DNA from: Desulfurococcales archaeon
Lineage (GTDB): Archaea; Thermoproteota; Thermoprotei_A; Sulfolobales; WANQ01
Length of the DNA stretch: 60,167 nucleotides
Direction of reading: 5' to 3'
Assembly (NCBI GenBank): GCA_027030065.1
Contig: JALVFK010000218.1
Span: forward strand, 1 to 60,167
Position 1 is the first letter of the stretch. Every line of letters starts with the position of its first letter. Under the pieces are notes generated by a model. It searched no databases, was not told the DNA's origin, and worked only from the letters and a program-made list of their open reading frames with translations. The position numbers and the translations under genes are program-made. This document shows positions 10,228-38,582 of this stretch, one piece after another.

Positions 10228-12021
10228 TTAGTCTTCAAAATCCATAGCGTGATATATTTCTGGCGGGAGACCTGGTACGTCTCTATCTAACCAGTATTTG
10301 CTTTCCTCTATCTGTGCTTTTAGGAGCGCTTTGAATTCCTCCATAGATACATAGGTTGTTGGGTCTAGTTCTTTGAGTCTTTCCTGGCTTATTCCTGGTA
10401 CCTCCACTGGCACTAGTACCTTTTCACCCCAGACTGGATGAGGCTTGTACTTTACTGCCCCTCTAGCTGCTTGGAGTATGAAGAGTTCTGTTTCCTCTAT
10501 TGTTGGTCTTGTTCCTCCAACTGCTTTTGGTATTCCATTCTTTTCCACTAATATTGGTTCAGGAGCCATTATTGTTTTGTCTCCCAATTTCTTTTCAACC
10601 CACCTATACTTTGCTATTATCCTACCCGTAGTATTGAACTGATATACTTCTACGGGATCGCCTTTTTCTATTCTCTTCTTTAGGTACTCATAGAATCTTA
10701 CAACATGAGCAGTATTTGTCACCCCCATCGTAAAGGGTTTAGCATAACGGGCTACATATCTAACCTTTCCTACAACTTCTTTAGCTTGTGCGGGATGACC
10801 AATTGTTCTTCCATCAGCTAATACTTTTGCGGCTAGAGCTGGATCAACAATCTTCACCCAAGCATAATCGGTAAAGTACCCTGGTGATAGGAATATTGCT
10901 GTATTGAGTGGTCCACTAGAAGCAACATCGCCATCAAAGTAGCCAGTGTCTTCTAGGTAGAGTACGCTACGCGAATTACGATTAGGTCTGCCAAAGTATT
11001 GGAATAGTTCTCCCTTAAAGCTTGGATACCCGTTTTCATCGAACTCAGTGTTTTCGTGTAATGCTCTTGGACTTGTCGCTGCATTCCACATGGCTACTTG
11101 TTCTGGTGTTAGATCTTCTGTTTTAGTCCATGACCCCCTCTCGGATCCTATTACACGATCCTCGCACACCGCTACTATGTCATCATTCTTTATTACCTGG
11201 TCTTTCACGTAGTCTAAGGGATTGATACCGAATTGCTCAATGTATACTTTAGCGTTTTGAGGAGTCCACACGTATAACCCGTGAGTTGACTTACCTGTCC
11301 CAGTTAAACCCCATACAGACATTACTACACGTTTCCATTTTCCGTCAACTGTTTTAACAGAGAACTCTCTAAGAGAGGCATGTTCGCCCGTGCAGCCACG
11401 TTTGTAGACATGGAATATCCAGTGTGTTAGAACAGCTTTCTTAACCTCTCCCTGATATGATGATACTGTTATTATAGTAAAGTTGTGGTGGGGGAACCTC
11501 ATAACCATTAACATACGGTCTGTTCCAGGTATTTTCGGGTTACCGAGATAGTGGGGTATCACGAAGACCTCCACGTCTGGTTTCTCGTTGGGAGGTGCGG
11601 GGAAGACTAGTTGGCTCCAACGATATGCTATGTCAGGGAATTGTGGGTCAACATAAACTGCTGCGTGCATTTGTACTCTTGTACCTGGTTTGCCTACGTA
11701 ACCGTCAACTTTTATTAATGGACCTTGGGCAAGAATATGCTCCAATACTCTTAGCATGAGGAGTTTGTGCTCATACTTTAATTCATAATCTCTTTCTATA
11801 ACCACGGTATTAGCTGCAGACCTACTCCATATATTAGATGCCCAACCCCATGAACCATTCCTATATCTTGTACCATACATTTTAGCTCTTTCAAACAGAT
11901 CTGGAGGATTATCTCTTAGTGCTATCAGCCCCGCTTTCTTCTTAAGCTCTATTATTTTTCTAAAAGTCTCCTTGAACTTCTCTGGCGTTAATTCTTCAAG
12001 TGGAGGAATAATTCGAGGCAA
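10228..12021 (-). CDS. phosphoenolpyruvate carboxykinase (ATP)-like protein, divergent
   Basis: 597 aa. YQGEVKKAVL..GEHAS aligns with PckA YAGEMKKG..MHCSAN. Kinase-1a loop WGLTGTGKSTHGL aligns with GLSGTGKTTLS. A degenerate IKNDDIV stands in for LIGDDEH after an extra ~30-aa spacer. Confidence 0.6.
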   Translation of the reverse strand: MPRIIPPLEELTPEKFKETFRKIIELKKKAGLIALRDNPPDLFERAKMYGTRYRNGSWGWASNIWSRSAANTVVIERDYELKYEHKLLMLRVLEHILAQGPLIKVDGYVGKPGTRVQMHAAVYVDPQFPDIAYRWSQLVFPAPPNEKPDVEVFVIPHYLGNPKIPGTDRMLMVMRFPHHNFTIITVSSYQGEVKKAVLTHWIFHVYKRGCTGEHASLREFSVKTVDGKWKRVVMSVWGLTGTGKSTHGLYVWTPQNAKVYIEQFGINPLDYVKDQVIKNDDIVAVCEDRVIGSERGSWTKTEDLTPEQVAMWNAATSPRALHENTEFDENGYPSFKGELFQYFGRPNRNSRSVLYLEDTGYFDGDVASSGPLNTAIFLSPGYFTDYAWVKIVDPALAAKVLADGRTIGHPAQAKEVVGKVRYVARYAKPFTMGVTNTAHVVRFYEYLKKRIEKGDPVEVYQFNTTGRIIAKYRWVEKKLGDKTIMAPEPILVEKNGIPKAVGGTRPTIEETELFILQAARGAVKYKPHPVWGEKVLVPVEVPGISQERLKELDPTTYVSMEEFKALLKAQIEESKYWLDRDVPGLPPEIYHAMDFED

Positions 12022-12218: not shown

Positions 12219-12722
12219 TTATTGTTTTTGTTTATCTTGCTTATAGTATTTTGCTGCCGCTTTTATTGCTTCAATTATCTGTTTGTAGCCTGTGCACCTA
12301 CATATCAGTCCACTTAATACTTCCTTGATTTCCTCTTCAGTTGCATCAGGCTTGTTTGTTAATAGCCAGTGGGCTGTTAGTATGAATCCTGGTGTACAGA
12401 ATCCACACTGGAATGCTCCGTGCTCTATGAAGGCCTTCTGTATTGGGGCTAGTGTTCCGAAAGGTGCTAGTCCTTCTAGCGTGATTATTTCTGCTCCATC
12501 GGCTTCAGCTGCTAGTACTAAACATGATTTTACTGGTTTGCCATTTAGTAAGACTGTACATACACCACATTCTCCTCTATAACATGTTCCTTTAACGCTC
12601 TTTATGTTTAACTTGTTTCTCAATACGAACAGCAGTGTTTCGTTTGGCTTTACTTCAACTTTGTATTCCTTACCGTTTACTTTTAATGTAATAGGTATGA
12701 GCTTCTCCGCCATGACCATCAC
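12219..12722 (-). CDS. Mo-hydroxylase small subunit, [2Fe-2S]-binding (CoxS/XdhC-iron-sulfur type)
   Basis: 167 aa. Plant-type cluster C-x4-C-x2-C (CYRGECGVCTV) and second cluster QCGFCTPG...CRCTGY. Confidence 0.93.
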   Translation of the reverse strand: MMVMAEKLIPITLKVNGKEYKVEVKPNETLLFVLRNKLNIKSVKGTCYRGECGVCTVLLNGKPVKSCLVLAAEADGAEIITLEGLAPFGTLAPIQKAFIEHGAFQCGFCTPGFILTAHWLLTNKPDATEEEIKEVLSGLICRCTGYKQIIEAIKAAAKYYKQDKQKQ

Positions 12723-13624
12723 CCTTCAAGTAGTGTTTTTAATAGATATCTTGTTCCAAATTCCACCATGTGTTCTCTGAGTTCCTTTGTTGCTCTCACA
12801 TCAGTTATCGGTGAGACCTTAGACATCACAAGCTTAACTGCTTCTTCCGCTAGCTCACTTAATGGTTTATCTTGTTTGAACAGTTCCTCTACCTCCTCGA
12901 CTATTACAGGTGTTGGCGCGACAGATGATAATGCTATTCTAACAATACGTTTTGCTGGATCCTTAGGATTCGCAACTAATGCTGCAATACCTACTAGTGC
13001 AAGATCCTCAGCACTGCGTACGAATTTTAGGTATCTACCCTTTGCTCCCTCGGGTGGCTCTGGTATGAATATTGAGGTAACCATTTCGTTTGGCTCAAGT
13101 ATGGTTTTCTTAACCCATTTGAAGAAGTCCTTTATCTCAACTGTTCTCGTTCCATTCACGCTCGCAATATTCACTTTCGCCTTCAATACTAGTAGAGCTG
13201 GCGCACTATCAGCTGCTGGCGAAGCGTTACATATGTTTCCTACAAGAGTTGCCTTCATTCTCAAGTGTGTGTCGGCTAGCTGTCTTATTGCATCCCATAG
13301 TACATAATATTTTTCTTTTACTATCTTATTGTTTAACAGTTCATCTAATGTGACGGTTGCACCAATAGTTAAACCTTTACCTTCCTCGTATTTTAACGTG
13401 TGAAGCTCATCTATGCCCTTTATATCAATCACATATTTTGGCTGCTTAATCCTCATCCTCATGTCTACTAGCAAGTCTGTTCCGCCTGCTAGTATCCTAG
13501 CATCTCCCTTGTACTTGTCTAGTAGTTCCAGTGCTTCTTGAAGAGTCTTTGGTCTAAAGTATTCAAATTCGGGAAGTAGTGTATGGAATACTAGTACAGA
13601 CTTAGATGCCGCCATGATTCTCAC
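12719..13624 (-). CDS. Mo-hydroxylase medium subunit, FAD-binding (CoxM type)
   Basis: 301 aa. ILAGGTDLLVDM FAD-binding motif. 4-nt overlaps with both neighbouring subunit genes. Confidence 0.9.
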   Translation of the reverse strand: MRIMAASKSVLVFHTLLPEFEYFRPKTLQEALELLDKYKGDARILAGGTDLLVDMRMRIKQPKYVIDIKGIDELHTLKYEEGKGLTIGATVTLDELLNNKIVKEKYYVLWDAIRQLADTHLRMKATLVGNICNASPAADSAPALLVLKAKVNIASVNGTRTVEIKDFFKWVKKTILEPNEMVTSIFIPEPPEGAKGRYLKFVRSAEDLALVGIAALVANPKDPAKRIVRIALSSVAPTPVIVEEVEELFKQDKPLSELAEEAVKLVMSKVSPITDVRATKELREHMVEFGTRYLLKTLLEG

Positions 13625-15990
13625 CCTTTAACTTTTAATGCTTCTCTAACTTTTTCTAATAGCTCAGGTCTCTGCTTCTTTACCTCCTCAATTATCTTGT
13701 CCGGTTTCATTGGTAGTTCGTAGAGTTCTACTCCTATTGCATTCGCTATAGCATTTGCTATGGCTGCAGGCCATGGAAGCATTGTTAGCTCACCTACACC
13801 CTTAGCACCATAAGGTGCGTCCTTCTGGCCTACTCCGAGACACTTGAATATCATTTCCTCTGGTATGTCTGCAGCTCTTGCAAGCTTATAGTCTGTGAAG
13901 TTGGGGTTCATTAATCTACCATTCTTGTCGAATTTGAGTTCCTCGAGCAAGCCTATGTTGATGCCCATAACTGTTCCACCGTATACTTGTCCTGCAACAA
14001 GCAGTGGATTAATTGCTGGCGTGTCTAGAACCATTACTGCTTTGAGAACCTTTACACGCCCGGTGATTAAGTCTACCTCTACTTCAACAGCACCTGCACC
14101 AAATGTGTAGAATGGTGCTGGTACGCTCTTTCCAGTCTCTGGGTCTGGTATAGATGTTCTAACTGGTACGTGGCTACCACGACCAATTAGTGGACCGCCA
14201 ATAGTGTTTCCATTAGGATACATATAGCCCAGAGCCATTTCCGCTAATGATATACACTCCCATGGTTCACCTACTACACATGCCTTACCATCTCTAATCT
14301 CTATTTGATCCTCAAATACTCTGAATACCTGGGCCGCTACTTTCTTTATCTGACTCTTCAAGTCCTCTAAAGCCCTAATTAATGCTTGACCTTCGCTAAA
14401 GAGTCCTCTACTACCAACAGTTTGCCACGTATATGGCACCATGTCGGTTCTTCTCTCCGGAGATATCCTTATTTTCTCTACTGGTATACCTAGTTCCTCC
14501 GCAACTATTTGCGCAAGAGACGTTATAGTGCCTTGACCCATTTCGCCTGTTCCTACTAAAACATCAACGGAGCCATCATCGTTTAACTTTACAATTGCAG
14601 ATGATGCCGCATTAGAGGGCTGTACCGGACCTTTCCAGAAAGCCGCAATACCCTTCCCACGGAACTTCCAAGGCTCCTTGGGTTGCTCGGGAGGCTTACC
14701 CCACTCTATGAGTTTCGCGGCCTCCTTAATTGCACCTGCAGGATCGCCAGCGTCTTCTCTTAATCTTTCTTGTGTATGTGTTATTGATTTTCCAGGTATA
14801 AGTACGTTCTTTAATCTGAATTCTACTGGATCCATTCCTAACTTTTTAGCTAACAGATCCATTTGTCTTTCTGATGCAAAGTAGAGCTCCATTAATCCAA
14901 AGCCACGGAAGGCCGTAGTTGGTATCTTATTTGTATAAACGGCGTATGCATCGGTGTGTACGTGTTCTATTTCATAGGGGCCGAAGGGCTTTAGTCCTAC
15001 AGATCTCGCCACATTTACTGTATAATCAGCGTATGCTCCTGCATCCAGTATGTATTCTCCCCAATGAGCAATTAGTTTGCCGTCTTTTGTCGCACCAGTC
15101 TTCATCTTAAAGTAATAGCCTGCTCTTTGCGCCATGTAGAAGTAGTTTTCTTCACGGTTTAGTTCTAGTCTTACTGGTCTGCCTCCGAGCTTCATTGAGA
15201 AGAGTACTGGTATGTGCTCTAATAGTAAGCCAGCCTTACCTCCGAAACCACCACCAATGTACATATGATGAACTACTACTTTATGTATTGGTAATCCTAG
15301 AGATGTTGCCAGCAAGTTTCTTACAGCAAAAGGTGATTGGTGGCTTGACCATATCTCTACTGTTCCATCGCTTTTCACTCTTGCTACTCCAACCCAGTTT
15401 TCAAGATATCCTTGGCTTATTAATGGTTCATAATAAGTATTCTCTACCACTACATCTGCCTTAGAAAATCCTTCCTCTATATTACCCTTTCTAAGCTTTA
15501 AATGAGTAGCTATATTTGTTCCAGGCTTCGGGTATATGAATGGTGCATGTTTATACTCATGTAGTTTCTCGTGAACTAGAGGTGCGTCTGGTTTCAAGGC
15601 TTCTAGTGCATCAAGAACTGGTGGTAGCGGCTCATATTCAACCTCGATTAGCTCTGCTGCTTTTTCTGCTGCTTCAAGGGTTTCTGCTACTACAGCTGCA
15701 ACAGGGTGGCCATAATATAGTACTTTCTCTCGGGCTAAGACATCTCTATCTGCAGCATATATACCTACTTTGAATGGAAAGTCTGCACCAGTAAATACTG
15801 CTAGAACTCCTGGTACTTTTAATGCCTCATCGTATTTTATTTTAAGTATTTTTGCATGCGCATAGGGTGCTGCAACAAGTTTTGCGTAGACCATTCCAGG
15901 TAGTGTGAAATCATATGGGTATTCAGCATCGCCAGCAACTTTATCTATGTCTATTCTAGGAATAGGTTTACCTACATATTTTGTACCCAT
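13621..15990 (-). CDS. Mo-hydroxylase large subunit, molybdopterin-binding (xanthine dehydrogenase/aldehyde oxidase family)
   Basis: 789 aa. IGGGFGGK motif and a/b-hammerhead N-domain. Lacks the VAYRCSFR CO-dehydrogenase signature. Confidence 0.93.
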   Translation of the reverse strand: MGTKYVGKPIPRIDIDKVAGDAEYPYDFTLPGMVYAKLVAAPYAHAKILKIKYDEALKVPGVLAVFTGADFPFKVGIYAADRDVLAREKVLYYGHPVAAVVAETLEAAEKAAELIEVEYEPLPPVLDALEALKPDAPLVHEKLHEYKHAPFIYPKPGTNIATHLKLRKGNIEEGFSKADVVVENTYYEPLISQGYLENWVGVARVKSDGTVEIWSSHQSPFAVRNLLATSLGLPIHKVVVHHMYIGGGFGGKAGLLLEHIPVLFSMKLGGRPVRLELNREENYFYMAQRAGYYFKMKTGATKDGKLIAHWGEYILDAGAYADYTVNVARSVGLKPFGPYEIEHVHTDAYAVYTNKIPTTAFRGFGLMELYFASERQMDLLAKKLGMDPVEFRLKNVLIPGKSITHTQERLREDAGDPAGAIKEAAKLIEWGKPPEQPKEPWKFRGKGIAAFWKGPVQPSNAASSAIVKLNDDGSVDVLVGTGEMGQGTITSLAQIVAEELGIPVEKIRISPERRTDMVPYTWQTVGSRGLFSEGQALIRALEDLKSQIKKVAAQVFRVFEDQIEIRDGKACVVGEPWECISLAEMALGYMYPNGNTIGGPLIGRGSHVPVRTSIPDPETGKSVPAPFYTFGAGAVEVEVDLITGRVKVLKAVMVLDTPAINPLLVAGQVYGGTVMGINIGLLEELKFDKNGRLMNPNFTDYKLARAADIPEEMIFKCLGVGQKDAPYGAKGVGELTMLPWPAAIANAIANAIGVELYELPMKPDKIIEEVKKQRPELLEKVREALKVKG

Positions 15991-16102
15991 TTATCTCCCC
16001 AAAATAAAGTCACTCGTGAACAAGTGAATTATTATTGGGGGAGGCTATTTAAGTATAACGATAATGTATTAATAGCGAAATACTTATTTTCAGTGTTAAA
16101 GA

Positions 16103-16411
16103 TTAGCCCCCACCGAACCATTCCATTACTTCGATATTATCAACACTAACTTCTCTAACATTAGATAAGGGTGCATCTAGTCCTCCACGTAATTTTATAC
16201 TGAAACCATCTATCAGTATAACAAGTCTTGACCTAGGCTGTAACAAGTCTTCGGGTTTTTCTATCTCGAATTCTTTTCTTGCTTTATCGCCTAGCTGTTT
16301 CAGCAACTCTTCTAAGAGATCTCTAACTGTCTTCACTTCCTTATCTATAATTATTTCTTCCTTACCTACAAGATCCTTTAGTCTTCCATGGAGGCGTACT
16401 CTTATCGGCAT
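16103..16411 (-). CDS. MoaD/ThiS-family ubiquitin-like beta-grasp protein ending in GGG
   Basis: 102 aa. MPIRVRLHGRLKDLVG... with a C-terminus ...IEVMEWFGGG immediately before the stop. Confidence 0.6.
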   Translation of the reverse strand: MPIRVRLHGRLKDLVGKEEIIIDKEVKTVRDLLEELLKQLGDKARKEFEIEKPEDLLQPRSRLVILIDGFSIKLRGGLDAPLSNVREVSVDNIEVMEWFGGG

Positions 16412-16481
16412 TATAGTTCACAATAATAGTGTTATTGGAAGTGAGGTTAAAAATATATTGTGGGTTAAAAAGATTTTTTCT

Positions 16482-16655
16482 TTACAATATCTTATCCAAT
16501 ATGTCTTGGAGATCCTTTTCTATCTTTGGCGGAGGTTGCCACACTACGTGTACTGCTTTAACATTCTGGTCTTTAAGCGATTTATAGAAGAACTCTAGTC
16601 CTATGTTTATTACCTTTAGTTCGGATTTGAATAATTTGAGTATTTTTTCAACCAT
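16482..16655 (-). CDS. stand-alone FdrA/AllF C-terminal segment
   Basis: 57 aa from ATG 16655 (GTG 16664 also in frame). VINIGLEFFYKSLKDQNVKAVHVVWQPP matches the C-terminal tail of E. coli FdrA as I recall it (VINIGLRSFALELQS..KPVVHYQWSP). GGTGA lies 5 nt upstream. Confidence 0.6.
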   Translation of the reverse strand: MVEKILKLFKSELKVINIGLEFFYKSLKDQNVKAVHVVWQPPPKIEKDLQDILDKIL

Positions 16656-16660
16656 TTCTC

Positions 16661-16665
16661 TCACC
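16661..16665 (-). promoter_or_regulatory. Shine-Dalgarno GGTGA for the small FdrA-tail ORF
   Basis: Minus strand reads TAA CCA AGA AAA TAG GTG AGA GAA ATG. GGTGA is 5 nt before ATG 16655. Confidence 0.5.
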
Positions 16666-16676
16666 TATTTTCTTGG

Positions 16677-18299
16677 TTAATATTTTCCTACAAGGAATTC
16701 GTTGTAGAACTTGTCTATTTTTGCTTCATCTATTTTCTTCTCAGCTATTAGTGCTGCTGTTAAAGCCATTAATGCATTCGTTGGTAAGACTATTACACCT
16801 GCGCTCCTTAGTATTTCTTCTTGTTTTTTCGCGTTTTGGGGGTCTTTTTCTGTTCCAGTTATGTGTGCTAGTATTGTTAGATGTCTCCCATCTTCTTCGG
16901 CTATCTTCTTTGCCTTCTTTATTGCGTCTAGATGTGCTGTTGCGGGATCTGGGTGACTTCCATATCCTATTACGAAATCCAGTAGTATTACTGCTACTTC
17001 AGGGTCTTTTGCTTCATCTACTAGCCTTAGTAGGCGTATTGTTGGGTCAATCATTGGATGTGCCCTACCAGCAGTGAACTCTTCTTCTCCTAGATCTATT
17101 ACTGTGTGCTTTATGCTCTTGTGTACGTCGGGTAACTGGTATTCTGGATTCAATGGTGTGTTTGAATAAACGTCTCCAATGAGTTCTTTGAATATCACTT
17201 GTGTTTCGAAGGTGAGTGTTCCTCCAGTAAACAAGCCTCTTATGTATTTCTGCCTCTCGCCGAGTTTTGCGATTTCTGCTTCTGCTATCTTTATTATCTC
17301 TTCCTTTGGTAAGAACAACTTCTTCTTGGCTTCCTCATAGAGTTTTTCGTCAACTAGCTTTACTGCTTCAAGAGCTGCAGCATGTAGTGTTTTTGTCTGT
17401 ACTAGTCTACCCTTGAGTTTTTCTGGGATTTCAAAGGTCTTACCGCCAATAAAGCATGTAACATATTTCTTCTTAGTATTCTCTACTATATAGTTGATTA
17501 TTTTGTCTTGTACGTCGGGTGAGGGTGGTTTTGATACTATTGCTATTACCTTTGTCTCGGGGTCTGCTTCAAAAGCTTTGATTGATAGTAGAGTCATTAA
17601 TCCACCAACGGGTGATTTGACATCTCTACCTCCAACACCAATACCTTGTGTGATACCCGAGCCAGCCTGGCTTACGAGTACAGTGAATTCTTGAAGTCCT
17701 GTGCCAGCCGCTGCTACAACTCCTATTGGTCCACGGTTTACAACATTAGCGAAGCCTAGTGCAACTCCATTTATTATCGCTGTACCAGCTTCAGGACCCA
17801 TTACTAGTAGTCCTTTCTCATACGCTATTTTCTTTAACTCTATTTCATGTTCTAGTGGTACGTGGTCGCTGAATAAGTGGACATGTATGTCTCTTTCTAG
17901 TAGTTTTAGTACAACGTCTCTAGCATATTGTCCCGGTATTGACACAACTGCTATATTAGCATCCTTTAATGCCTCTAAGGCTGATTCTAGACTATAATAG
18001 TAGGTTTCTGCAGCGGTTTCTCCCGGTGCTGTGAGTAGTTTTTCAACCTTCTCTAATATTTCATCAATATTTGCTGAATCTTCAACCTTTAATGCTATGA
18101 TCATATCGTTATCTGTTGCTGCTCTTCCCTCGTCAGTCAGTAGTCCTTGTTTCTCTAATAGTTCTTTGTTGAGATCCGTTCCCATTACGATGGCAGCATC
18201 AAGCACTCCTTCTATCTTCTTTGCCTCTTCACTTAGGTGTAGGAGTTGTACTGAGTCTCTGTAAAAGTTCTTTTTAACGAAGTTTTTTACAATAACCAA
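16677..18299 (-). CDS. fdrA: FdrA/AllF-like protein (succinyl-CoA-synthetase-alpha-like; oxamate carbamoyltransferase subunit family)
   Basis: 540 aa, collinear with E. coli FdrA from memory. Matching blocks: FYRDSVQLL, VSIPGQYA, LLVMGPEAGTAII, GTGLQE, GGRD, VSKPP, RAHPMIDP and TGTEKDPQ. Confidence 0.85.
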   Translation of the reverse strand: MVIVKNFVKKNFYRDSVQLLHLSEEAKKIEGVLDAAIVMGTDLNKELLEKQGLLTDEGRAATDNDMIIALKVEDSANIDEILEKVEKLLTAPGETAAETYYYSLESALEALKDANIAVVSIPGQYARDVVLKLLERDIHVHLFSDHVPLEHEIELKKIAYEKGLLVMGPEAGTAIINGVALGFANVVNRGPIGVVAAAGTGLQEFTVLVSQAGSGITQGIGVGGRDVKSPVGGLMTLLSIKAFEADPETKVIAIVSKPPSPDVQDKIINYIVENTKKKYVTCFIGGKTFEIPEKLKGRLVQTKTLHAAALEAVKLVDEKLYEEAKKKLFLPKEEIIKIAEAEIAKLGERQKYIRGLFTGGTLTFETQVIFKELIGDVYSNTPLNPEYQLPDVHKSIKHTVIDLGEEEFTAGRAHPMIDPTIRLLRLVDEAKDPEVAVILLDFVIGYGSHPDPATAHLDAIKKAKKIAEEDGRHLTILAHITGTEKDPQNAKKQEEILRSAGVIVLPTNALMALTAALIAEKKIDEAKIDKFYNEFLVGKY

Positions 18300-18398
18300 C
18301 TAGTTATCACCTAGGATCTTACAGCTTAAGCATAAGGGGGGTAGAGAGTAAAAAAGATGTCTTAGAAAGACTGTTTGTTTTTACTATAATTTATTTGA

Positions 18399-19304
18399 TT
18401 AGTCAGAGCAGAATGCTACTAGTCTACAGAACGCTGATTCACCGCCCATGAACTTGAATGGGAATGCTGAGATTACACATCTTCTGTTAAGTACTTGCTC
18501 TATTTCACCGCCAGCGTTCTCCACGTGTAGTATGCCCTTGGGGAATAGGTATGTGTGCATTAACTGGTAGTTCTCCGGCCATGGCATGGCTTCGTCTACT
18601 GATACACCATACTTCTTCTTGAATTCCTCCGCTATATCCGGTCTTACTCTCCTAATCACAGTATTTAGTGGATGGTCTTGTGATACAGCGTCTACAGCTG
18701 TCCACTTTATCTTCTTCTTGATTAACCAGTCTGCAAACTCTTTCTTAGGGCCTGGATGCTTTAGCATGTATCTTACTGTATCTGCTCCGGGCTGATACCA
18801 TGCATACTTGCTATAGCCAGTATATATTACTAGTACGTCTCCCTCCTTTATCTCTAGGTTGTATTCCTTTGCTCTCTTCTCAATCATTTCTGACGTATAT
18901 ATTCCTAGGTCATCAACCATGTCACTTATATCAATTATTACTCCCTCGCTGATCCAGTACTCAATAGGAATACTGCCAATGTCCAAACCTGCTGGATCAA
19001 AGTGTAATGGACCATCCATGTGTGTGCCTATGTGGAGTGGTGTTTGTATGTATTGTGCCTGTACTCCGTGCTCTGTTACTACCTTAATCCACTTGAACTC
19101 AAATGGAGGATATGTTGGGAATGGTGGTGTTAGGTTGCTCAGGGGCTGTGAAAGATCGTATACCTTTACATTTGACCAGTCAACGTATTTTGTCCAATCG
19201 AATTTCGGTTTACCCTCTTTCTCTATTTTCTCAACGAATTCCTCAAGAATGTTACCTACTCTAGCCTTCCATTTTTTATTTGATGGAGGATATAGGTATG
19301 CCAT
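18399..19304 (-). CDS. cyclase-family metal-dependent hydrolase (kynurenine formamidase-like)
   Basis: 301 aa. HIGTHMDGPLHF = H-x-G-T-H-x-D-x-P-x-H cyclase-family motif. Confidence 0.75.
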   Translation of the reverse strand: MAYLYPPSNKKWKARVGNILEEFVEKIEKEGKPKFDWTKYVDWSNVKVYDLSQPLSNLTPPFPTYPPFEFKWIKVVTEHGVQAQYIQTPLHIGTHMDGPLHFDPAGLDIGSIPIEYWISEGVIIDISDMVDDLGIYTSEMIEKRAKEYNLEIKEGDVLVIYTGYSKYAWYQPGADTVRYMLKHPGPKKEFADWLIKKKIKWTAVDAVSQDHPLNTVIRRVRPDIAEEFKKKYGVSVDEAMPWPENYQLMHTYLFPKGILHVENAGGEIEQVLNRRCVISAFPFKFMGGESAFCRLVAFCSD

Positions 19305-19409
19305 AAGAACGCACCTACGTGGAATAAGTGGTTCTATCTTTGCTTTTAAGTTTTACTTATTTCGTAATTGAGTGTACCGTAATAAATAATTATTTACGTT
19401 ACTTTACGA

Positions 19410-20357
19410 TTAATTTTCAAAAAACAATTTAAAATATTCTTCGATAAATTCTCCCCTATGGATAGATTCTAGAATTACAGCTAAAGCAGCTAAAACACCT
19501 AAAGCCATATCTAGCCCGGAGGTATGACCCACGGATAACAATGAAAGAAAGTAATTTATGGTGTCTTTGTATTCCATTTTAAAAATGCTTTCTATAAAAC
19601 CTTCTAGAATATTACTAAACAACCCCAAGTGATTATAATACAATAAATATCCGCTTACCCAATTAGTCTTCTTAAAGACTAAGTTTTTATTAAGAATCAA
19701 TGGCTTCAAAGTATTGCACGAAAGATAAATGTTAACTGTGCCAAGTAGTCCTCCAAAAAAGTCGTCTGTTGAGGGTGTTACTCCATAACCCAATCCAAGC
19801 ATTGAATACATCTCTTGCATAATTACACTATCTTTTTCAATTATATATTTTTTAATCCCATATAGTATGTCAAGTATTTTTGTCTCCATATTCATTTTTT
19901 CAACTAGTTCTAAAATATTGTTTGGTTTATCAATAATATCTAGGAAGAAACTAACCCTATTATACAAATCCGCTAGAAATCCCATGAGCTCCCGTTTTCT
20001 AACATTACTAACTAGTTTGCAGATACCGCAAACACGTGGAGTAGCTATTTTTTCTCTACGTAGCTCTATACGTATTTTGAGATCACCACCGACAATGATG
20101 AATGGTTTATCGAAAAATACATTTTCATAAGGTCTCACATATTCTTGAAAGTTCACAAACCATATTTGATTATAATTTACATTCACATATATGGGTGAGG
20201 AATAATTTAATGCTGTAATTGAGAGAAGCTTGTTATTTATGTCACGTATGTTTATTGTTCTGCGAAATACGTTTACGACCTCGCCTACAATACTTTTATC
20301 CTTTATAACAAATGGGATCCATAGAGAACCTATTTTACCAGCATTAAACTCTGTCAA
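19410..20357 (-). CDS. allH: DUF2877 / AllH (YlbF)-like protein
   Basis: 315 aa. GLGYGVTPSTDDFFGGLLG resembles the G.G.GLTPSGDD motif I associate with DUF2877. It sits between fdrA and the DUF1116 gene, as in the E. coli fdrA-ylbE-ylbF cluster. Confidence 0.6.
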   Translation of the reverse strand: MTEFNAGKIGSLWIPFVIKDKSIVGEVVNVFRRTINIRDINNKLLSITALNYSSPIYVNVNYNQIWFVNFQEYVRPYENVFFDKPFIIVGGDLKIRIELRREKIATPRVCGICKLVSNVRKRELMGFLADLYNRVSFFLDIIDKPNNILELVEKMNMETKILDILYGIKKYIIEKDSVIMQEMYSMLGLGYGVTPSTDDFFGGLLGTVNIYLSCNTLKPLILNKNLVFKKTNWVSGYLLYYNHLGLFSNILEGFIESIFKMEYKDTINYFLSLLSVGHTSGLDMALGVLAALAVILESIHRGEFIEEYFKLFFEN

Positions 20358-20436
20358 GAATATAATGCCTTTGCTAAACTATGTAATTATTGTTTAAAAA
20401 GAATAGTTATATTTATTAGATGTTTTGCTTTTGCGA

Positions 20437-21741
20437 TCATATTCCGTAGACTTCTGCGAATCTTCTTAGTGCTGCTTTGAAGTGATCTATAGGGAATACT
20501 ACTATACCTGCGCCTATTTGTCCTACTCCTGGTTCTTTGTGTGCTATACCAGTGTTTATTGTTGGTGTTATACCCGTGGCTACTACTTTTCTAATGTCTA
20601 CTCCTGTTGGCGTACCCTGGAAGTTTAGGTAGGGTATTGTGAAGTATTTGTGCTTGGTATATGTTATCTGGTACATTTTCTTAGTATTCTCGATCGCGAA
20701 TTCTACTGATCCACCAACCCATGACACTATTGCTGGTGCCGCAGCCATAGCGAAGCCTCCGAATCCTGCTGTCTCCGTTATACTGCTGTCTCCTATGTCT
20801 GGGTTAGCGTCTTTCTCTGAGTATCCTGGGAACCATACTCCCTTGGGTACTGGTGCTGGTGCTGTAAACCATTCGTTGCCTAGACCGCTTACCCATATGG
20901 CTGTGTCGGTACCGTTTCTGGTCATCACAGTTACTATTGTGCTATACTTTATGTTGTGGGCTGCTAGGGTCATTGCCTTAGCTGAAGCCATACCTAAGTT
21001 TAGTGTTGTGAACGGATTGCGCGCCATGAAGTCGTATGCTTCTAGTATCATCTTTTTGTCTAGGTCTGTCTTAACTAGGTATGGTGCTATTTCTTTTAGG
21101 AAGAGAGTTGTAGTTGCAACGTATCTGTTGTGGCACTCGTCTCCCATGTGGAGGGCTTGAGCAATTAAGGGTTTAAACTCTAAACCGGGCTTACCATCTT
21201 TCTTTATCTCTTCTATAACTGCCTTGAGAACTGGGTATAGGACATCCCTCATCCAGTTGAGTCTATCGATAACCTCCTTACTGTATGCACCATATCTCAG
21301 AACCTTACCTATACCCTCATTCATGTTACTATAAGCATAGTTGCCGAACTTTTTATCATAAACTATATATACAGGCATTGAAGGTGATACAACGCCAGCC
21401 ATAGGACCGACTACATTATGAGGGTGCGTGGGCTCGAAGACAACCTCGCCTGTTCTCAGAAGCCTCTCAGCTTCCTCAGGCGTACTTGCCCATCCCTCAT
21501 AAATACAAGCACCAATTAGTGCACCCTTGAGCGGGCCAGAAGCTCTCTCCCATGTTACTGGGGGTCCCGCGTGTAAGAGCATTCTATCTTTCATGCCAGG
21601 TATTACTTTAATAGCTAGATCCATGTCAACCCAAACGGGTTCGGCCTCCATCATGTTTTCAACAGCTTTCTTGTTTGCCTTTTCTATTTCTTCTTTAATA
21701 CTAGAAGATTTTTCTATTTTCTTAGCTTCTTTATTAGACAT
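20437..21741 (-). CDS. allG: DUF1116 / AllG (YlbE)-like protein
   Basis: 434 aa. LLHAGPPVTWERASGPLKGALIGACIYEGWA, NVVGPMAGV, NEGIGKVLRYGAY, GDSSITETAGFGG and INTGIAHKEPGVGQIGAG follow the E. coli YlbE sequence closely (from memory). Confidence 0.85.
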   Translation of the reverse strand: MSNKEAKKIEKSSSIKEEIEKANKKAVENMMEAEPVWVDMDLAIKVIPGMKDRMLLHAGPPVTWERASGPLKGALIGACIYEGWASTPEEAERLLRTGEVVFEPTHPHNVVGPMAGVVSPSMPVYIVYDKKFGNYAYSNMNEGIGKVLRYGAYSKEVIDRLNWMRDVLYPVLKAVIEEIKKDGKPGLEFKPLIAQALHMGDECHNRYVATTTLFLKEIAPYLVKTDLDKKMILEAYDFMARNPFTTLNLGMASAKAMTLAAHNIKYSTIVTVMTRNGTDTAIWVSGLGNEWFTAPAPVPKGVWFPGYSEKDANPDIGDSSITETAGFGGFAMAAAPAIVSWVGGSVEFAIENTKKMYQITYTKHKYFTIPYLNFQGTPTGVDIRKVVATGITPTINTGIAHKEPGVGQIGAGIVVFPIDHFKAALRRFAEVYGI

Positions 21742-21809
21742 AAGAACACCACACTCTACTATTATGATAAACGCATAAATAAAAACTTTACCAACAACTA
21801 CGACAAGGA

Positions 21810-22331
21810 GTGCCAGTAAAAGAGTCTTGGGGTTCGAAGAAGTTGTGGAATGAGATTATACATAACTTAAAGAATATACTTATAGAACATGGTTTCACGA
21901 TAAGAGAACTTGAAAACCAAGATGTAACTGCTGTAAAGAAACTGAAGAGAATAGGGTTAAAGAGGCGCTTAATATTCTTCTACATAACTAAGACCGATCT
22001 TCTAACATTGAAGGAAGCAAAGAGGATAAACAAATTATTTAATAAATATAAGCCGGGAGGGGTGAGTATGTTCTTTTACTATAATATCGTGATAGTTGCA
22101 AAAGATTTTGAACGTGAGGCTCTCCAGTTCATAAGGGAGAAAATGACTGAGGCCTGGAATATAGAGGGTGCTTTTACATGGAATGTCCTAGCGTCTTCCT
22201 ATACTAAGGTGACACATTTATTCGATACCAGTAGGCAAACAGTATTGTATCCTTATGATTATGAATATATGAAGATGCTTATGCATCCAGAAGTTGTTGT
22301 GATAATAAACGAGTTATTAGAAAAAATATAA
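21810..22331 (+). CDS. hypothetical protein (possible restriction-endonuclease-like fold)
   Basis: 173 aa with GTG start. It is the only plus-strand gene in the array and shares a pattern with the N-domain of the 25322-26566 product (GF.I ... hydrophobic strand ... IVIVAK ... EA..F). Confidence 0.45.
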   Translation: MPVKESWGSKKLWNEIIHNLKNILIEHGFTIRELENQDVTAVKKLKRIGLKRRLIFFYITKTDLLTLKEAKRINKLFNKYKPGGVSMFFYYNIVIVAKDFEREALQFIREKMTEAWNIEGAFTWNVLASSYTKVTHLFDTSRQTVLYPYDYEYMKMLMHPEVVVIINELLEKI

Positions 22332-22376
22332 TAGTATGTGAAAATGATTTAACTTTGTACTAAACTCTTATCAGCC

Positions 22377-23993
22377 TTAGCCTAGCCAGTCGGGATGCGT
22401 TATACCTCTCTCCTCTGGCGTGCCTGGTATTATGTTATCCAGTAGTATTCCTAGTATAGCACCAACAGCCATACCAGTCCTTAGTATGATTACAATTATC
22501 TGCGCCAGCCACTCCCAGCCCGGTGGAAACGCTGCCATTACTAAGTCTGCTCCGGTTTGTCCGCCCCAGTTAGCATTGTCCATTATATACGGTATTGCTA
22601 GTCCCGAGAATGACGATATACCTACTATGAATAGGTTTCTAGCCGACTTTAGATCGGCTAGCGATAGTAATGATATACCTACTGCTGCAATTAGACCGAA
22701 AGTGGCAAAGTACATTCCGGCAATTATTGGGAAGGGCATCGTTGCCATAAAGGCGCCCCAGACGTATAGGATACCGCCTAGGAATAGTATTATTAGACCT
22801 CCTGTCTGGAAGACTATTCTGCTGGCAACTCTTGTTAGACCGATAGCACCAATGTTCTCTGAATAGCTTGTTGTACCAGCTTGTGCACCGAAGATACCAC
22901 CTATGAAGCAACCGAGACCCTCTGCTCCAAGTCCTTTGCTTATCATCTTCTCTGTTGGAGGTGGCGCTTCTGACATTCTACATACTGAGTGATAGTCTCC
23001 TATGGATTCAACCATGCTTGCCAGGTATCCAGCAAGCATACCTAGTGTAAATGCTGGTACAAACTTTGGTGGACCCCATGGGAATGGTATTGGTGCTCTG
23101 ATATATGTGCCCGTTCTAACCATTTCTGTTATAGTATATGTGTTTATAGCACAGAAACCTCCAATAGCACCAGTAAACGTTAATATTGCTGCAACCAACC
23201 ATGCCAGAAGAATTGATGTTAGTATCGAGAACATTTGTATCTTAACATACTTGCTGCCTATAATCTGGTTTAATAATACTATCAATACTATTACTAATAC
23301 ACCCTCCCACCAGCAGCCGTGGAAGTTCGTGCCTCCAGGTGCCCCATATAGTGTTAGACCTATTAGCATGACAGTAGGTCCTATAGAGACTGGCGTTATA
23401 ACACGTTTTACCTTACCCATTATGCCAGAGTATCCTAGGAAGATCTCGAACAATGCACCAGTGAATACCGCTGTACTTACATAGTTTGCAACTGTCGTAG
23501 CACGCGTCCATGGATCCGTATTAGCTATGAAATCGTCAAGGCTAGCATAGCCTTCTAGCTGAGCTATTACGGCACCAGCTGTTATGATGCTTATTGCAGG
23601 GCCGAGGAATGAGAACGATGACCCTTGAATGATTGGTAGACCGCTTCCTGTCTTAGGCCATGTCTGCAATAATGTTGCAATACCAGCCACGAAGAAGGTT
23701 ATTGTCACTAATTCTGCTATAAACCGTCTTGTAACTTCTTCCGGTAGCTGATACGTGTTCGCGACAATACCGGATAGAATCATTGGTACTGCTATTGTAG
23801 CACCGAACATTATAAGATATTGCTGTATACCTAGTGCTATTGTGAGCGCCCAAGATTCTGGCTTATCTTCAATTCCATAGATTAACCATTTTCTTTTGGC
23901 TTTCTTAGCTAACTCCTGCCATTCTTCAAAAGTAGTTATTCTTTTCCTTTGAGGTTGAGCCTCGGCACTCACAGAATACCCCCTTTTTAACAT
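22377..23993 (-). CDS. NCS2/NAT-family nucleobase:cation symporter
   Basis: 538 aa, about 13-14 TM. N-terminal YGIEDKPESWALTIALGIQQYLIMFGATIAVP. NAT signature SENIGAIGLTRVASR. Confidence 0.88.
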   Translation of the reverse strand: MLKRGYSVSAEAQPQRKRITTFEEWQELAKKAKRKWLIYGIEDKPESWALTIALGIQQYLIMFGATIAVPMILSGIVANTYQLPEEVTRRFIAELVTITFFVAGIATLLQTWPKTGSGLPIIQGSSFSFLGPAISIITAGAVIAQLEGYASLDDFIANTDPWTRATTVANYVSTAVFTGALFEIFLGYSGIMGKVKRVITPVSIGPTVMLIGLTLYGAPGGTNFHGCWWEGVLVIVLIVLLNQIIGSKYVKIQMFSILTSILLAWLVAAILTFTGAIGGFCAINTYTITEMVRTGTYIRAPIPFPWGPPKFVPAFTLGMLAGYLASMVESIGDYHSVCRMSEAPPPTEKMISKGLGAEGLGCFIGGIFGAQAGTTSYSENIGAIGLTRVASRIVFQTGGLIILFLGGILYVWGAFMATMPFPIIAGMYFATFGLIAAVGISLLSLADLKSARNLFIVGISSFSGLAIPYIMDNANWGGQTGADLVMAAFPPGWEWLAQIIVIILRTGMAVGAILGILLDNIIPGTPEERGITHPDWLG

Positions 23994-24872: not shown

Positions 24873-25226
24873 TCACTTTATTGCTTTTGAACCTCTCTCC
24901 CCGGTTCTAATTCTTATTACATCTTCTACTGGTATTATGAATATCTTTCCGTCTCCTGGAACACCTCTTCTAACAGTCCTCATAATAATGTCTATTATCT
25001 TATTGACCTCATTGTCATCTACGACTATTTCAACCTTTACTCTTGGTAAAAGATCGTAATACTCGACTCCCTCAGGCCATTTATATCTTATTCCTCCTTG
25101 TCTCCCCCTTCCCCGAACAGAGTAAGCTGTAAGGGGAGAGAGGCCAGCTTCGCTTAGCGCCTTCTTGAGGGAGTCTAATGCTTCTTCTCTTATTATTACT
25201 TCTATTTTCTTCACAATAAAACCCAA
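24873..25226 (-). CDS. PII nitrogen regulatory protein (GlnB/GlnK family)
   Basis: 117 aa. KIEVIIREEALDSLKKAL, T-loop RGRGRQGG, C-terminal GDGKIFIIPVEDVIRIRTGERG. Confidence 0.9.
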   Translation of the reverse strand: MGFIVKKIEVIIREEALDSLKKALSEAGLSPLTAYSVRGRGRQGGIRYKWPEGVEYYDLLPRVKVEIVVDDNEVNKIIDIIMRTVRRGVPGDGKIFIIPVEDVIRIRTGERGSKAIK

Positions 25227-25321: not shown

Positions 25322-26566
25322 CTACGGTATAAGTCCTTTTTCTTTGATTTTTTCGAGTATATCAAGATTCGAGAATATCTTGTAGAAGGAATTCTTCTCT
25401 TCAAGTGTTATTCCATCAAGAATCAATAACTTTGATGTTTTCTCACCATTCTCAGATTTTATAGCCGCATAAAACGGGTAATACACTATGTATATTTTTT
25501 CAGTTTTTCCGTTTAACGCTTCAACTAAATCTACAAAACGCGTAATACATGTTCTCAGCGGTAATAAGATTCTCCCCTTAGACTCTGTAGGAGCGCCACG
25601 ATGTATTGGAGCGTTTTTAACTTTTGCTATTGTTAATGGGTCTACGAATTTACTCAGTATCGAGTACCTTACCTCTACCATGTCACCAAAGATGTCAAGC
25701 AATGATTTATTTGATAGCCTACCAAGTATAGTACGTAATTTTTCTTTAGATACCCCTAAGCCTTCCTCAATATCAGTTATAGCTACAGTACCTTCCTCTG
25801 ATATCTTTTTTAATACAGTTATAGCTTCAGTTGAGAAATCGGAAAACTTTCCTAGTACCTCATCTAGCCCAATAGAGAACCCCTCCTTTACCACTGCATA
25901 ACCTTCCAGTCCATCAAATACTAGTTTGCCTTTTACCACACTTACTTCTTCCCTTACTATGTCTTTCTCTGCTATATGAATGTCTAAGACTACGAGTGGA
26001 ACGAATATGAGGGTATAATGTGTTATTCTCGACTTGTTTCTACGTAGAATAGATGATTTATTGGTTTTCTTATAGAATATTTTTAATGCTTGTTCTGGTC
26101 CTATTACTGGCTCTATATGATACTCTTCGTAGAATCTTTCTTTACTCCAAATACTTTTATCAATATTTAGGTCTTCAGTAGGTCTCACGATATCTATGCC
26201 GTATCTCTTCGCTAATTCAAAGGCTTCAGAATCTACTTCTTTAAGAGCCACAATAACTATTTTGTCTAAGGGGAGTTCGCTTTTCCATGCAATATATTTC
26301 TCCACTGTATCTAGATTGATATTATCTCTTATAAGAATGAAACCTATCCTAAGTAGAGCACCGGGTATAGGTGCAAATTCCGCTACTATGTCAAAGATAT
26401 GACTAACACGACCTTCACCTAACACAGGGTAATTTGTATGAATACTAAATCCCTGACTCTTTAACCTGGATATGATCCAAGTCCTTACATACTCGTACCC
26501 ATTTCTATGAACGCGTTCCCCTATAACATTTTTATGATCAATTGTATCCTCAACGTTTGATGCCAT
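25322..26566 (-). CDS. hypothetical protein: restriction-endonuclease-like N-domain plus winged-helix region
   Basis: 414 aa. The N-domain (SHIFDIVAEF ... RIGFILIRD ... IVIVALKEVDSEAFELAKRYGIDIV) is Mrr-like by pattern. The central ITVLKKISEEGTVAITDIEEGLGVSKEKLRTILGRLSNKSLL is wHTH-like. Confidence 0.45.
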   Translation of the reverse strand: MASNVEDTIDHKNVIGERVHRNGYEYVRTWIISRLKSQGFSIHTNYPVLGEGRVSHIFDIVAEFAPIPGALLRIGFILIRDNINLDTVEKYIAWKSELPLDKIVIVALKEVDSEAFELAKRYGIDIVRPTEDLNIDKSIWSKERFYEEYHIEPVIGPEQALKIFYKKTNKSSILRRNKSRITHYTLIFVPLVVLDIHIAEKDIVREEVSVVKGKLVFDGLEGYAVVKEGFSIGLDEVLGKFSDFSTEAITVLKKISEEGTVAITDIEEGLGVSKEKLRTILGRLSNKSLLDIFGDMVEVRYSILSKFVDPLTIAKVKNAPIHRGAPTESKGRILLPLRTCITRFVDLVEALNGKTEKIYIVYYPFYAAIKSENGEKTSKLLILDGITLEEKNSFYKIFSNLDILEKIKEKGLIP

Positions 26567-32268: not shown

Positions 32269-33207
32269 TTAATCTGGTACTACAATTGTACCTGTTTTTT
32301 CTTCGAGGATTTCTAGGGCCTTGTATAGATGGCCTATAGCGGCTTTCTTTCCTCCGTGTTTTATGAACCTTATGCACGCTAGTACTTTAGGTCCCATAGA
32401 GCCGGGTGGGAAGTGTCCCTCATTGTATAGCTTTTCTAGTTCACTAACCTTTATCTTTCTTATAACTTTTTGATCGGGTTTTCCAAAGTTTAACATCGCT
32501 CCTTCAACATCTGTTAATATTATGAAGTAGTCTGCTCTTAGTTCTGATGCCAGTACTTCTCCCGCTAGGTCTTTGTCTATTACAGCCTCAACGCCCTTTA
32601 TTGTATCGTCTTCTTTTATTACGGGTATTCCTCCTCCACCGCTCGCTACTACTATATAGCCTGCATCTACCAGTGTCTTTATAGCGTCTATTTCTAGGTT
32701 AGCTTTAGGATCAGGTGAAGGTACTACTCTTCTCCAGCCTCCACGTGGATCAGGTTTCATTATCCAACCTTTCTCTTTAGCTATCTGCTTTGCTTCTTCT
32801 TCCGTATAGTATGGTCCTACATATTTTGTCGGGTTCTGGAATGCTGGATCATTTTTATCTACTAATACTCTATTCACTATTGCTACTACCTTTTTGTCAA
32901 TACCTCTCTTCTTTAGTTCGTTTGATAGAGCTTGCATTATCATGTAGCCTAGCCATCCCTGGGTCATCGCACCAGCTATGTCCATTGGTAGTGGCGGCAC
33001 CTTTTCTTTTCCAGCTTCCATCCACACTAGAATGTTTCCTACTTGCGGACCATTACCGTGTGTTAAGACCACTCGGTATCCTCTTTCGATAATGTCTGCT
33101 ATTTGTTTCATTGCCCTTATAACATTGTTCCATTGATCTTCTGCTGTACCTTTTTGCCCCTTTTGTAAGAAGGCGTTCCCTCCTAGGGCAATAACTATTG
33201 TCTCCAT
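32269..33207 (-). CDS. arcC: carbamate kinase
   Basis: 312 aa. [19 protein letters not shown] and ASGGGGIPV motifs. Confidence 0.92.
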
Positions 33208-38508: not shown

Positions 38509-38582
38509 GACATATGACCCTCTAATCTAAGCTTTATTAGATACAGCACGAATTTAAGTAAATACCCCTTAAGGGTGTGTTT

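Follow-up and report, generated by a model that had tools for sequence, protein, structure and literature searches.

The stretch of DNA considered here (the window, 60,167 nucleotides of contig JALVFK010000218.1 from the Desulfurococcales archaeon assembly GCA_027030065.1) carries between positions 12219 and 23993 a gene cluster that combines a three-subunit molybdenum (Mo) hydroxylase, a cyclase-family metallohydrolase, homologues of the AllF, AllG and AllH proteins of Escherichia coli and a nucleobase permease. With slightly better than even confidence, this cluster is proposed to be the core of a uracil-type pyrimidine catabolism, which would proceed via barbiturate and ureidomalonate to carbamoyl phosphate and malonamate. 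A wider reading, which we regard as evenly balanced, is that of an undescribed, energy-conserving oxidative pyrimidine pathway common to archaea of the TACK group (Thaum-, Aig-, Cren- and Korarchaeota) and many anaerobic bacteria; there, the Mo-hydroxylase subfamily would be a uracil/thymine dehydrogenase, the cyclase-fold protein a non-homologous “barbiturase”, and AllFGH a general N-acylurea phosphorylase, represented here by a four-piece enzyme (AllF, a free tail, AllG, AllH) in which the tail would connect AllF and AllG.

For comparison, 80 AllG-centred loci (L008–L087) were drawn from one-genome-per-species collections of public genomes; the window proteins were compared against them and all of their open reading frames (ORFs) were clustered. 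Gene families were assigned by Pfam and NCBIfam profile searches, an NCBIfam equivalog meaning that the curated score cut-off was reached. Identities to E. coli AllF, AllG, AllH and the tail were obtained by BLASTP, and further copies in the source genome (1.86 Mb in 272 contigs, 97.6% complete) were located by tblastn.

Among the 80 loci, AllF is found in 70, the cyclase in 44 (and in two additional fused forms), the Mo-hydroxylase large subunit in 35 and a carbamate kinase in 24. The large (L), FAD (M) and [2Fe-2S] (S) subunits of the Mo enzyme recur together with the cyclase and AllF/G/H in Desulfurococcales, Pyrodictiaceae, Caldarchaeales/Aigarchaeota and other Nitrososphaerota, as well as in Chloroflexota, Bacillota and a few metagenome-assembled genomes labelled as Pseudomonadota. 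The AllG tree resolves two coherent clades, an archaeal one in which 25 of 27 rows have cyclase or Mo genes and one of Chloroflexota in which 19 of 25 rows do. The bacterial cluster-linked proteins are nearer to those of the window (Mo large subunit 40–45% identity, cyclase 41–53%) than are the source genome's own paralogues (34–38% and 28%, respectively), which argues for orthologous sets travelling together. The co-location exceeds chance in archaea and bacteria alike. The carbamate kinase resides inside the cluster in L016–L018, L021, L023, L027 (84% identity), L042 and L044, and homologues of two Mo-enzyme maturation genes of the window stand beside AllFGH clusters, namely XdhC in L019, L020 and L027 and the MocA-like gene in L019, L020, L023 and L027.

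The Mo-hydroxylase is composed of a molybdenum-cofactor (Moco) large subunit, an FAD subunit and a 2×[2Fe-2S] subunit of the XDH/CoxL type, with all expected Pfam domains present. In an alignment with bovine xanthine dehydrogenase (XDH), the window large subunit reads GGGFGGKA against GGFGGKE(802), placing Ala at the position of Glu802; Phe914 is retained, and for Arg880 there is an Arg one position off only. The motif GGGFG[GSC]KAGxxxE is common to 29 of 29 cluster-linked large-subunit orthologues—all of them with Ala at the Glu802 position—and the catalytic Glu (GVGE) is retained. The top NCBIfam models for the large subunit are those of XdhA, and the XDH equivalog cut-offs are missed throughout (XdhA 493 bits vs 780; PucD 415 vs 784; XdhB 209 vs 310; XdhC 181 vs 217). 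Because Ala replaces Glu802 in every orthologue and no equivalog cut-off is reached, the window enzyme is, as judged from its sequence, not a canonical xanthine dehydrogenase. With the window large subunit, the curated models of XDH and of aldehyde, CO and glyceraldehyde dehydrogenases all stay below their cut-offs, and NCBIfam gives no assignment either for the genome's three Mo-hydroxylase paralogues or for the bacterial cluster-linked ones. The window large subunit belongs to a distinct subfamily, with GGGFGGKAG in place of the GGFGGKE of XDH.

Among solved structures, nicotinate dehydrogenase comes closest to the large subunit when the scores of its two chains are added (192 + 160 bits); the active-site region gives 134 bits. 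With the Eubacterium barkeri enzyme (PDB 3HRD) and bacterial XDHs, the window enzyme shares superfamily, L/FAD/2×[2Fe-2S] composition, the GVGE Glu and the Phe914 equivalent, but the position of Glu802 is occupied by Leu in nicotinate dehydrogenase, by Glu in XDH and by Ala in the window, and the GGGFG[GSC]KAGxxxE motif as well as the failure to reach any curated equivalog set the window family apart. Two more three-subunit Mo-hydroxylase sets are present in the source genome, on contigs C26 (L098) and C192 (L099). In the large subunit from C26, the position of Glu802 is acidic (GGGFGGKD) and PucD is the best-scoring model (526 bits, below cut-off); among the Mo-hydroxylases of the organism, this enzyme may resemble XDH more closely.

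In the cyclase-family protein, H90, H94, D96 and H100 of the HxGTHxDxPxH metal motif are invariant in 26 orthologues. Its AlphaFold2 (AF2) model (predicted local distance difference test, pLDDT, 87) has isatin hydrolases as top structural matches (E 5e-14, TM 0.62/0.70), with kynurenine formamidases (KynB) following behind. Isatin hydrolases are Mn-dependent, lactam-opening enzymes, and isatin is a five-membered alpha-keto lactam, like parabanate. The fold and the metal site are those of these PF04199 enzymes; however, identity to them is only ~20%, the window protein has ~90 extra residues, the arylformamidase equivalog TIGR03035 is missed (51 bits vs 223), and D204, S207, D209 and H210 are invariant residues specific to its own family. 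We propose that the protein is a ring-opening hydrolase.

This assignment is consistent with a sister group of uncharacterised clusters in Bacillota, Bathyarchaeia and nitrifiers, termed AllHFG-CK (CK, carbamate kinase). Like the window cluster, they pair AllFGH and carbamate kinase with a cyclic or linear ureide hydrolase, but they are devoid of Mo-hydroxylase and cyclase genes. Instead, they encode either a BiuH-like protein or an AtzD/TrzD/barbiturase-family amidohydrolase that opens rings (546 bits vs a cut-off of 360), from which it follows that the slot next to AllFGH is regularly taken by a cyclic-ureide hydrolase. In clusters of the window type, the cyclase-fold protein fills this place. 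In nitrifying archaea, AllFGHK genes are reported to adjoin biuret hydrolase (PMC12625717). A search of the source genome for an AtzD/TrzD-family barbiturase with PF09663, made without a positive control for that search, was empty, and tblastn with an AtzD-family query that matches eight of the loci gave nothing below E 0.06.

The AllFGH proteins of the window are homologues of E. coli FdrA (AllF, 38% identity), YlbE (AllG, 47%) and YlbF (AllH, 35% over the C-terminal 103 amino acids (aa)). The E. coli oxamate carbamoyltransferase is the sole characterised member of this family; its three proteins were co-purified and the reaction oxamate + carbamoyl phosphate ↔ oxalurate + phosphate was measured (Kim & Kim 2024; PMC11326118). 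As in the E. coli system, AllF-AllG-AllH plus AllK (allFGHK), the window has three homologous subunits, an FdrA tail and a carbamate kinase in the neighbourhood, and by analogy the same type of reaction is proposed, in which phosphate splits an N-acylurea and carbamoyl phosphate is formed. Several features differ: in the window, (i) separate genes encode the AllF body and its 57-aa tail, (ii) AllFGH is accompanied by a Mo-hydroxylase and a cyclase-fold hydrolase, with ureidomalonate instead of oxalurate as the likely substrate, and (iii) the cluster contains none of the allantoin genes allB/C/D/E that are located upstream in E. coli. On the AllG tree, E. coli AllG forms a long separate branch.

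The tail gene product is 34% identical to residues 511–554 of E. coli FdrA, of which a structure including the tail is available (3DMY, residues 82–555). The AllF body and the tail are parted by TAA, three codons and TAG, and a GGTGA Shine-Dalgarno sequence is found 5 nt ahead of the tail ATG. Given the two in-frame stops and the tail's own GGTGA, two genes are present and read-through does not account for them. The tail module is a free ORF in 23 loci, namely those of all TACK archaea sampled, of Halobacteroidaceae and L053; in ~45 bacterial and Bathyarchaeia loci it stands in frame at the AllG N-terminus, and E. coli, L038 and L039 have it at the C-terminus of AllF. Since the module fuses to either AllG or AllF, a Rosetta-stone hint suggests that it joins the two subunits.

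A direct contact between AllG and AllH was predicted from 28-row alignments per partner with three controls. The pair scored 0.83, compared with 0.00 for the best control, at ≥74% contact agreement between runs and with a partner pLDDT ≥86, which supports binding of AllG to AllH. For calibration, this mark was attained by 58 of 80 solved complexes and by 2 of 110 mismatched pairs, counts that apply only roughly here, since the alignments for AllG and AllH were custom-made. An AllG-like structure (3CLQ) but no AllH relative is deposited in the PDB, so that the score is unlikely to be the recall of a solved complex. Within AllH, the motif G-x-G-x-G-x-T-P-x-x-D-D is invariant in 28 orthologues; family-wide, only the C-terminal GxGxGxTPxxDD...TSG core is invariant. 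The allH gene is a trough of divergence, with 75–78% nucleotide identity to the close relative L009 compared with ~93% in the flanks, and at the protein level AllH is 54% identical to that of L008, AllG and the cyclase being 97–98% identical. AllH is the fastest-evolving member of the cluster.

Information on the substrate comes from the permeases of the nucleobase-cation symporter 2 (NCS2) family. In the nucleobase-ascorbate transporter (NAT) signature, Glu is typical of uracil transporters and Gln of xanthine/urate transporters. The window permease reads S-E-N-I-G-A-I-G-L-T-R and has the uracil-type Glu, as do all 13 NCS2 permeases of Mo/cyclase-type clusters, the window's included, whereas the four NCS2 permeases of the AtzD-type AllHFG-CK clusters have Gln. 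In Anaerospora hongkongensis (L043), the operon begins with a uracil permease (UraA) equivalog (701 bits vs a cut-off of 477). The equivalog and the uniform Glu motifs together point to uracil-like bases.

On this basis, the following sequence of events is envisaged. The NCS2 permease would import uracil or thymine, and the three-subunit Mo-hydroxylase, matured by XdhC and the MocA-like gene product, would hydroxylate C6 beside the ring nitrogen to give barbiturate or 5-methylbarbiturate, respectively. The cyclase-fold metallohydrolase would then open the cyclic ureide to the N-acylurea (methyl)ureidomalonate, which AllF with its tail, AllG and AllH would convert with phosphate to carbamoyl phosphate and (methyl)malonamate, in parallel to the action of the E. 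coli homologue on oxalurate. The ureidomalonate route is proposed because ureidomalonate (HOOC-CH2-CO-NH-CO-NH2) is a homologue of oxalurate (HOOC-CO-NH-CO-NH2), both being N-acylureas. Finally, carbamate kinase would use carbamoyl phosphate to form ATP, NH3 and CO2, or carbamoyl phosphate might feed transcarbamoylases. We infer every substrate and reaction of this pathway from gene families, their conservation, motif states and the predicted AllG–AllH complex.

An oxidative pyrimidine pathway of Rhodococcus and Mycobacterium, consisting of uracil-thymine dehydrogenase, barbiturase and ureidomalonase, was reportedly described by Soong, Ogawa and Shimizu. The proposed intermediates, barbiturate and ureidomalonate, are the same, and in both cases a multi-subunit Mo/FAD/Fe-S dehydrogenase acts first. 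Unlike in that pathway, where the barbiturase is an AtzD/TrzD “Toblerone” protein and the acylurea is hydrolysed to urea and malonate, ring opening here is assigned to a cyclase-fold metallohydrolase and the acylurea would be phosphorolysed to carbamoyl phosphate; furthermore, the hosts are anaerobes or hyperthermophile-type archaea. In this view, the oxidative pyrimidine pathway would exist in a phosphorolytic variant that employs different enzymes. The oxidative pathway is mentioned in PMC3758960 and PMC4051656.

In relatives, the gene content extends beyond the acylurea step. A carboxyltransferase of the methylmalonyl-CoA-decarboxylase type, mmdA-like (mmdA model 765 bits, below cut-off), is present in 16 loci, accompanied by a biotin carrier (BCCP) and OAD-beta sodium-pump subunits. 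Other recurrent neighbours are methylmalonyl-CoA mutase, a family-III CoA-transferase, a nitrilase-superfamily amidase and a thiolase with DUF35; cytosine-deaminase-like amidohydrolases lie within the clusters L024, L028, L033 and L077, and the Bacillota versions contain PucR-type regulators. By their annotation, these downstream genes fit malonate or methylmalonate: amidase, CoA-transferase and a sodium-pumping decarboxylase or mutase would take (methyl)malonate to acetyl-, propionyl- or succinyl-CoA.

A number of observations weigh against the pyrimidine assignment. It derives from gene context, the members of this cluster type being known from their genes. The window permease reaches no NCBIfam equivalog: the uracil permease model gives 63 bits vs 477, and the xanthine-permease model pbuX is higher at 168 bits, also below its cut-off of 414. 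Some relatives have Bmp/PnrA ABC importers, a type best known from the uptake of purine nucleosides. Given the 47% identity of AllG to an enzyme that acts on oxalurate, the window complex might use the same substrate. An oxamate/oxalate route would be suited equally, because the CoA-transferase of the relatives scores best against the CoA:oxalate model (397 bits; mesaconate 388, glutarate 385, all below cut-off). The window cluster itself is without amidase, CoA-transferase and decarboxylase; genome copies are found on contig C46 (family-III CoA-transferase and Asparaginase_2-type amidohydrolase) and contig C109 (decarboxylase and mutase). These could serve unrelated metabolism, and to see in them the later steps of the pathway in the source genome is speculative.

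The carbamate kinase, the single tblastn match in the source genome, is located 8 kb from the cluster and may also work anabolically, since a search of the genome, at 97.6% completeness, yielded no carbamoyl-phosphate synthetase domain of the CarB type (PF02787); an anabolic carbamate kinase is described for Pyrococcus. The genome encodes two transcarbamoylases of the ornithine/aspartate (OTC/ATC) type (L096, L097), and the synthesis of arginine or pyrimidines could equally draw on carbamoyl phosphate salvaged from the pathway.

The alternative that survives best retains the enzymology and changes the substrate to another N-heterocycle or cyclic ureide whose breakdown leads to an N-acylurea for AllFGH—for example, a five-membered ring of the hydantoin/parabanate type giving oxalurate, a triazine-like compound, or modified pyrimidines such as orotate or 5-substituted uracils. 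We consider it unlikely, but deserving of attention. It draws on the large subunit belonging to no curated family and having nicotinate dehydrogenase as its nearest solved relative, on the resemblance of isatin, the substrate of the nearest fold, to parabanate, on the preference of the CoA-transferase for the CoA:oxalate model, and on the sister clusters, whose AtzD- or BiuH-type partners indicate that the AllFGH module serves several ureides. The uracil permease equivalog, the uniform Glu in the NAT motifs and the cytosine-deaminase-like genes speak for pyrimidines instead, and oxalurate as a product would leave the methylmalonyl-CoA decarboxylase and mutase genes unexplained.

Degradation of a purine (xanthine or urate) to oxalurate, with AllFGH forming oxamate and carbamoyl phosphate as in E. 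coli, is improbable. It would accord with the true homology of AllF, AllG and AllH to oxamate carbamoyltransferase, with the XdhA models being the best for the large subunit and with the PucR-type regulators in Bacillota; however, Ala at the Glu802 position in all 29 orthologues, the XdhA score far below its cut-off, the uracil-type linked permeases and the isolated branch of E. coli AllG are at odds with it. Furthermore, neither uricase nor an Ldh_2/AllD-type dehydrogenase was found in the 97.6%-complete source genome, and there is no allantoin-pathway gene among the recurrent neighbours of the 80 loci. The earlier note had proposed hydroxylation, ring opening and cleavage of an acylurea to carbamoyl phosphate for carbamate kinase, starting from a purine-like or other N-heterocycle and passing through oxalurate or oxamate. 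Its general logic is upheld by the conservation of the cluster across domains, but the emphasis on purines, oxalurate and oxamate is not borne out by the above findings and is further disfavoured by the cytosine-deaminase-like, (methyl)malonyl-CoA decarboxylase and mutase genes of the relatives.

Finally, a coincidental neighbourhood, in which the Mo enzyme is an aldehyde (e.g., glyceraldehyde) dehydrogenase and AllFGH and the cyclase act separately, is very improbable: the best models for the S and M subunits are indeed Sulfolobus-type glyceraldehyde dehydrogenase gamma and beta, but all of these stay below their cut-offs (gamma 203 bits vs 290, beta 218 vs 350, alpha 416 vs 790), 35 loci of two domains show this Mo subfamily together with AllFGH and cyclase, and the C26 and C192 sets are free for other roles.

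If the pyrimidine reading is true, the reductive, the Rut and the hydrolytic oxidative routes of pyrimidine catabolism would be joined by a fourth, in which energy is conserved as carbamoyl phosphate and, in relatives, also via a sodium-pumping decarboxylase. The cluster would provide functions for three little-understood families, namely a Mo-hydroxylase clade, a cyclase-fold clade and, outside E. coli, DUF1116/DUF2877, and would make AllFGH, recognised only in 2024, an ancient ureide-breakdown module common to both domains. The handling of heat-labile carbamoyl phosphate in a Desulfurococcales-type archaeon would then become a question of its own. The cultured bacterial carriers Anaerospora hongkongensis DSM 15969 and Fuchsiella alkaliacetigena Z-7100 make the hypothesis directly testable. 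In the literature searched, which excluded most subscription journals as out of reach, no account of a Mo-hydroxylase, cyclase and AllFGH cluster or of a phosphorolytic pyrimidine route was found.

The features of the window are compiled in Table 1. By the ORF list, region 12219–23993 comprises eleven genes on the minus strand and one on the plus strand. All genes named in the earlier note were recovered at their positions by ORF, Pfam and NCBIfam analysis, on the minus strand except for the opposite-strand ORF on the plus strand, and profile searches placed each in the family it had been given, including DUF2877 for the AllH-like protein, DUF1116 for the AllG-like protein and the arcC equivalog for the carbamate kinase 8 kb away.

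Table 1. Features of the window with coordinates, strand and profile evidence (bit scores with NCBIfam or Pfam cut-offs where given).
Feature	Position	Strand	Evidence
NCS2/NAT nucleobase permease, 538 aa	22377-23993	-	PF00860, E 2e-64
Conserved 173-aa protein (orf173), divergent from allG	21810-22331	+	no family
AllG-like subunit (DUF1116), 434 aa	20437-21741	-	PF06545, 298 bits
AllH-like subunit (DUF2877), 315 aa	19410-20357	-	PF11392, 62 bits vs cut-off 25
Cyclase-family metal-dependent amidohydrolase, 301 aa	18399-19304	-	PF04199, E 1.5e-35; motif HIGTHMDGPLH
AllF/FdrA-like body, 540 aa	16677-18299	-	NF004760, 468 bits vs cut-off 433, model positions 2-497
FdrA tail gene, 57 aa	16482-16655	-	matches FdrA model positions 501-554
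MoaD/ThiS-like beta-grasp protein, 102 aa, ends GGG	16103-16411	-	PF02597, E 1e-6; TIGR01687 34 bits, below cut-off
Mo-hydroxylase large (molybdopterin) subunit L, 789 aa	13621-15990	-	PF01315, PF02738, PF20256
Mo-hydroxylase FAD subunit M, 301 aa	12719-13624	-	PF00941, PF03450
Mo-hydroxylase 2×[2Fe-2S] subunit S, 167 aa	12219-12722	-	PF00111, PF01799
Carbamate kinase	32269-33207	-	TIGR00746 arcC equivalog, 442 bits vs cut-off 358
XdhC-type molybdenum-cofactor insertion chaperone	38577-39398	+	PF02625, PF13478
MobA/MocA-like nucleotidyltransferase (Moco nucleotide attachment)	39402-39986	-	PF12804, E 3e-35

The gene of the FAD subunit overlaps both of its neighbours by 4 nt, and the XdhC chaperone and the MobA/MocA-like transferase are the usual maturation factors of this class of Mo enzymes. 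Inspection of the intergenic regions by eye revealed no shared regulatory motif. Downstream of the Mo genes, a divergent gene resembling phosphoenolpyruvate carboxykinase (10228–12021; PF01293, E 8e-16; NF006821 137 bits vs a cut-off of 369) was considered as a member of the cluster; it has no homologue in any of the 80 loci and is probably not part of it. Between the cluster and the carbamate kinase, a P-II nitrogen regulator (24873–25226) and a glutamine synthetase (28619–29998) form a neighbourhood of nitrogen metabolism.

A second nucleobase-type locus with another NCS2 permease is located on contig C46 (L093, 23–10824). In addition to the Asparaginase_2-type amidohydrolase and the CoA-transferase, the latter 41% identical to the cluster-linked one in L040, it contains a ribose-5-phosphate isomerase, a Bmp/PnrA binding protein and an ABC ATPase with permeases, and possibly provides downstream or uptake partners of the window cluster.

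Three small proteins accompany clusters of this type. For orf173, neither Pfam nor NCBIfam gave a match; that it is a real, conserved gene is indicated by orthologues which adjoin AllG or the permease in five related Desulfurococcales loci (L008, L010, L011, L012, L014). The confident AF2 model (pLDDT 88) has no significant match to solved structures, the best PDB matches being PD-(D/E)xK endonucleases (E 0.011; range 0.01–0.03), and a regulator or a nuclease-fold protein is possible. Region 25322–26566 on the minus strand was listed alongside orf173 as a second region of the window. Orthologues of the MoaD/ThiS-like protein, all of them ending in GGG, lie inside ten archaeal clusters, where they adjoin allH, allF or the Mo genes, and the bacterial cluster versions among the 80 loci showed no orthologue; the protein might deliver sulfur for the Mo=S ligand or serve as an additional subunit. 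For the c11 family (245 aa), neither Pfam nor PDB profile searches gave a match and the protein atlas pointed weakly to GNAT, so that no assignment was made. The family is present in 22 Mo/cyclase/AllFGH clusters, which belong to archaea and Chloroflexota (e.g., L011:5719–6471), and two homologues are encoded elsewhere in the source genome (C244:20402–21154 and C57:4502–5077).

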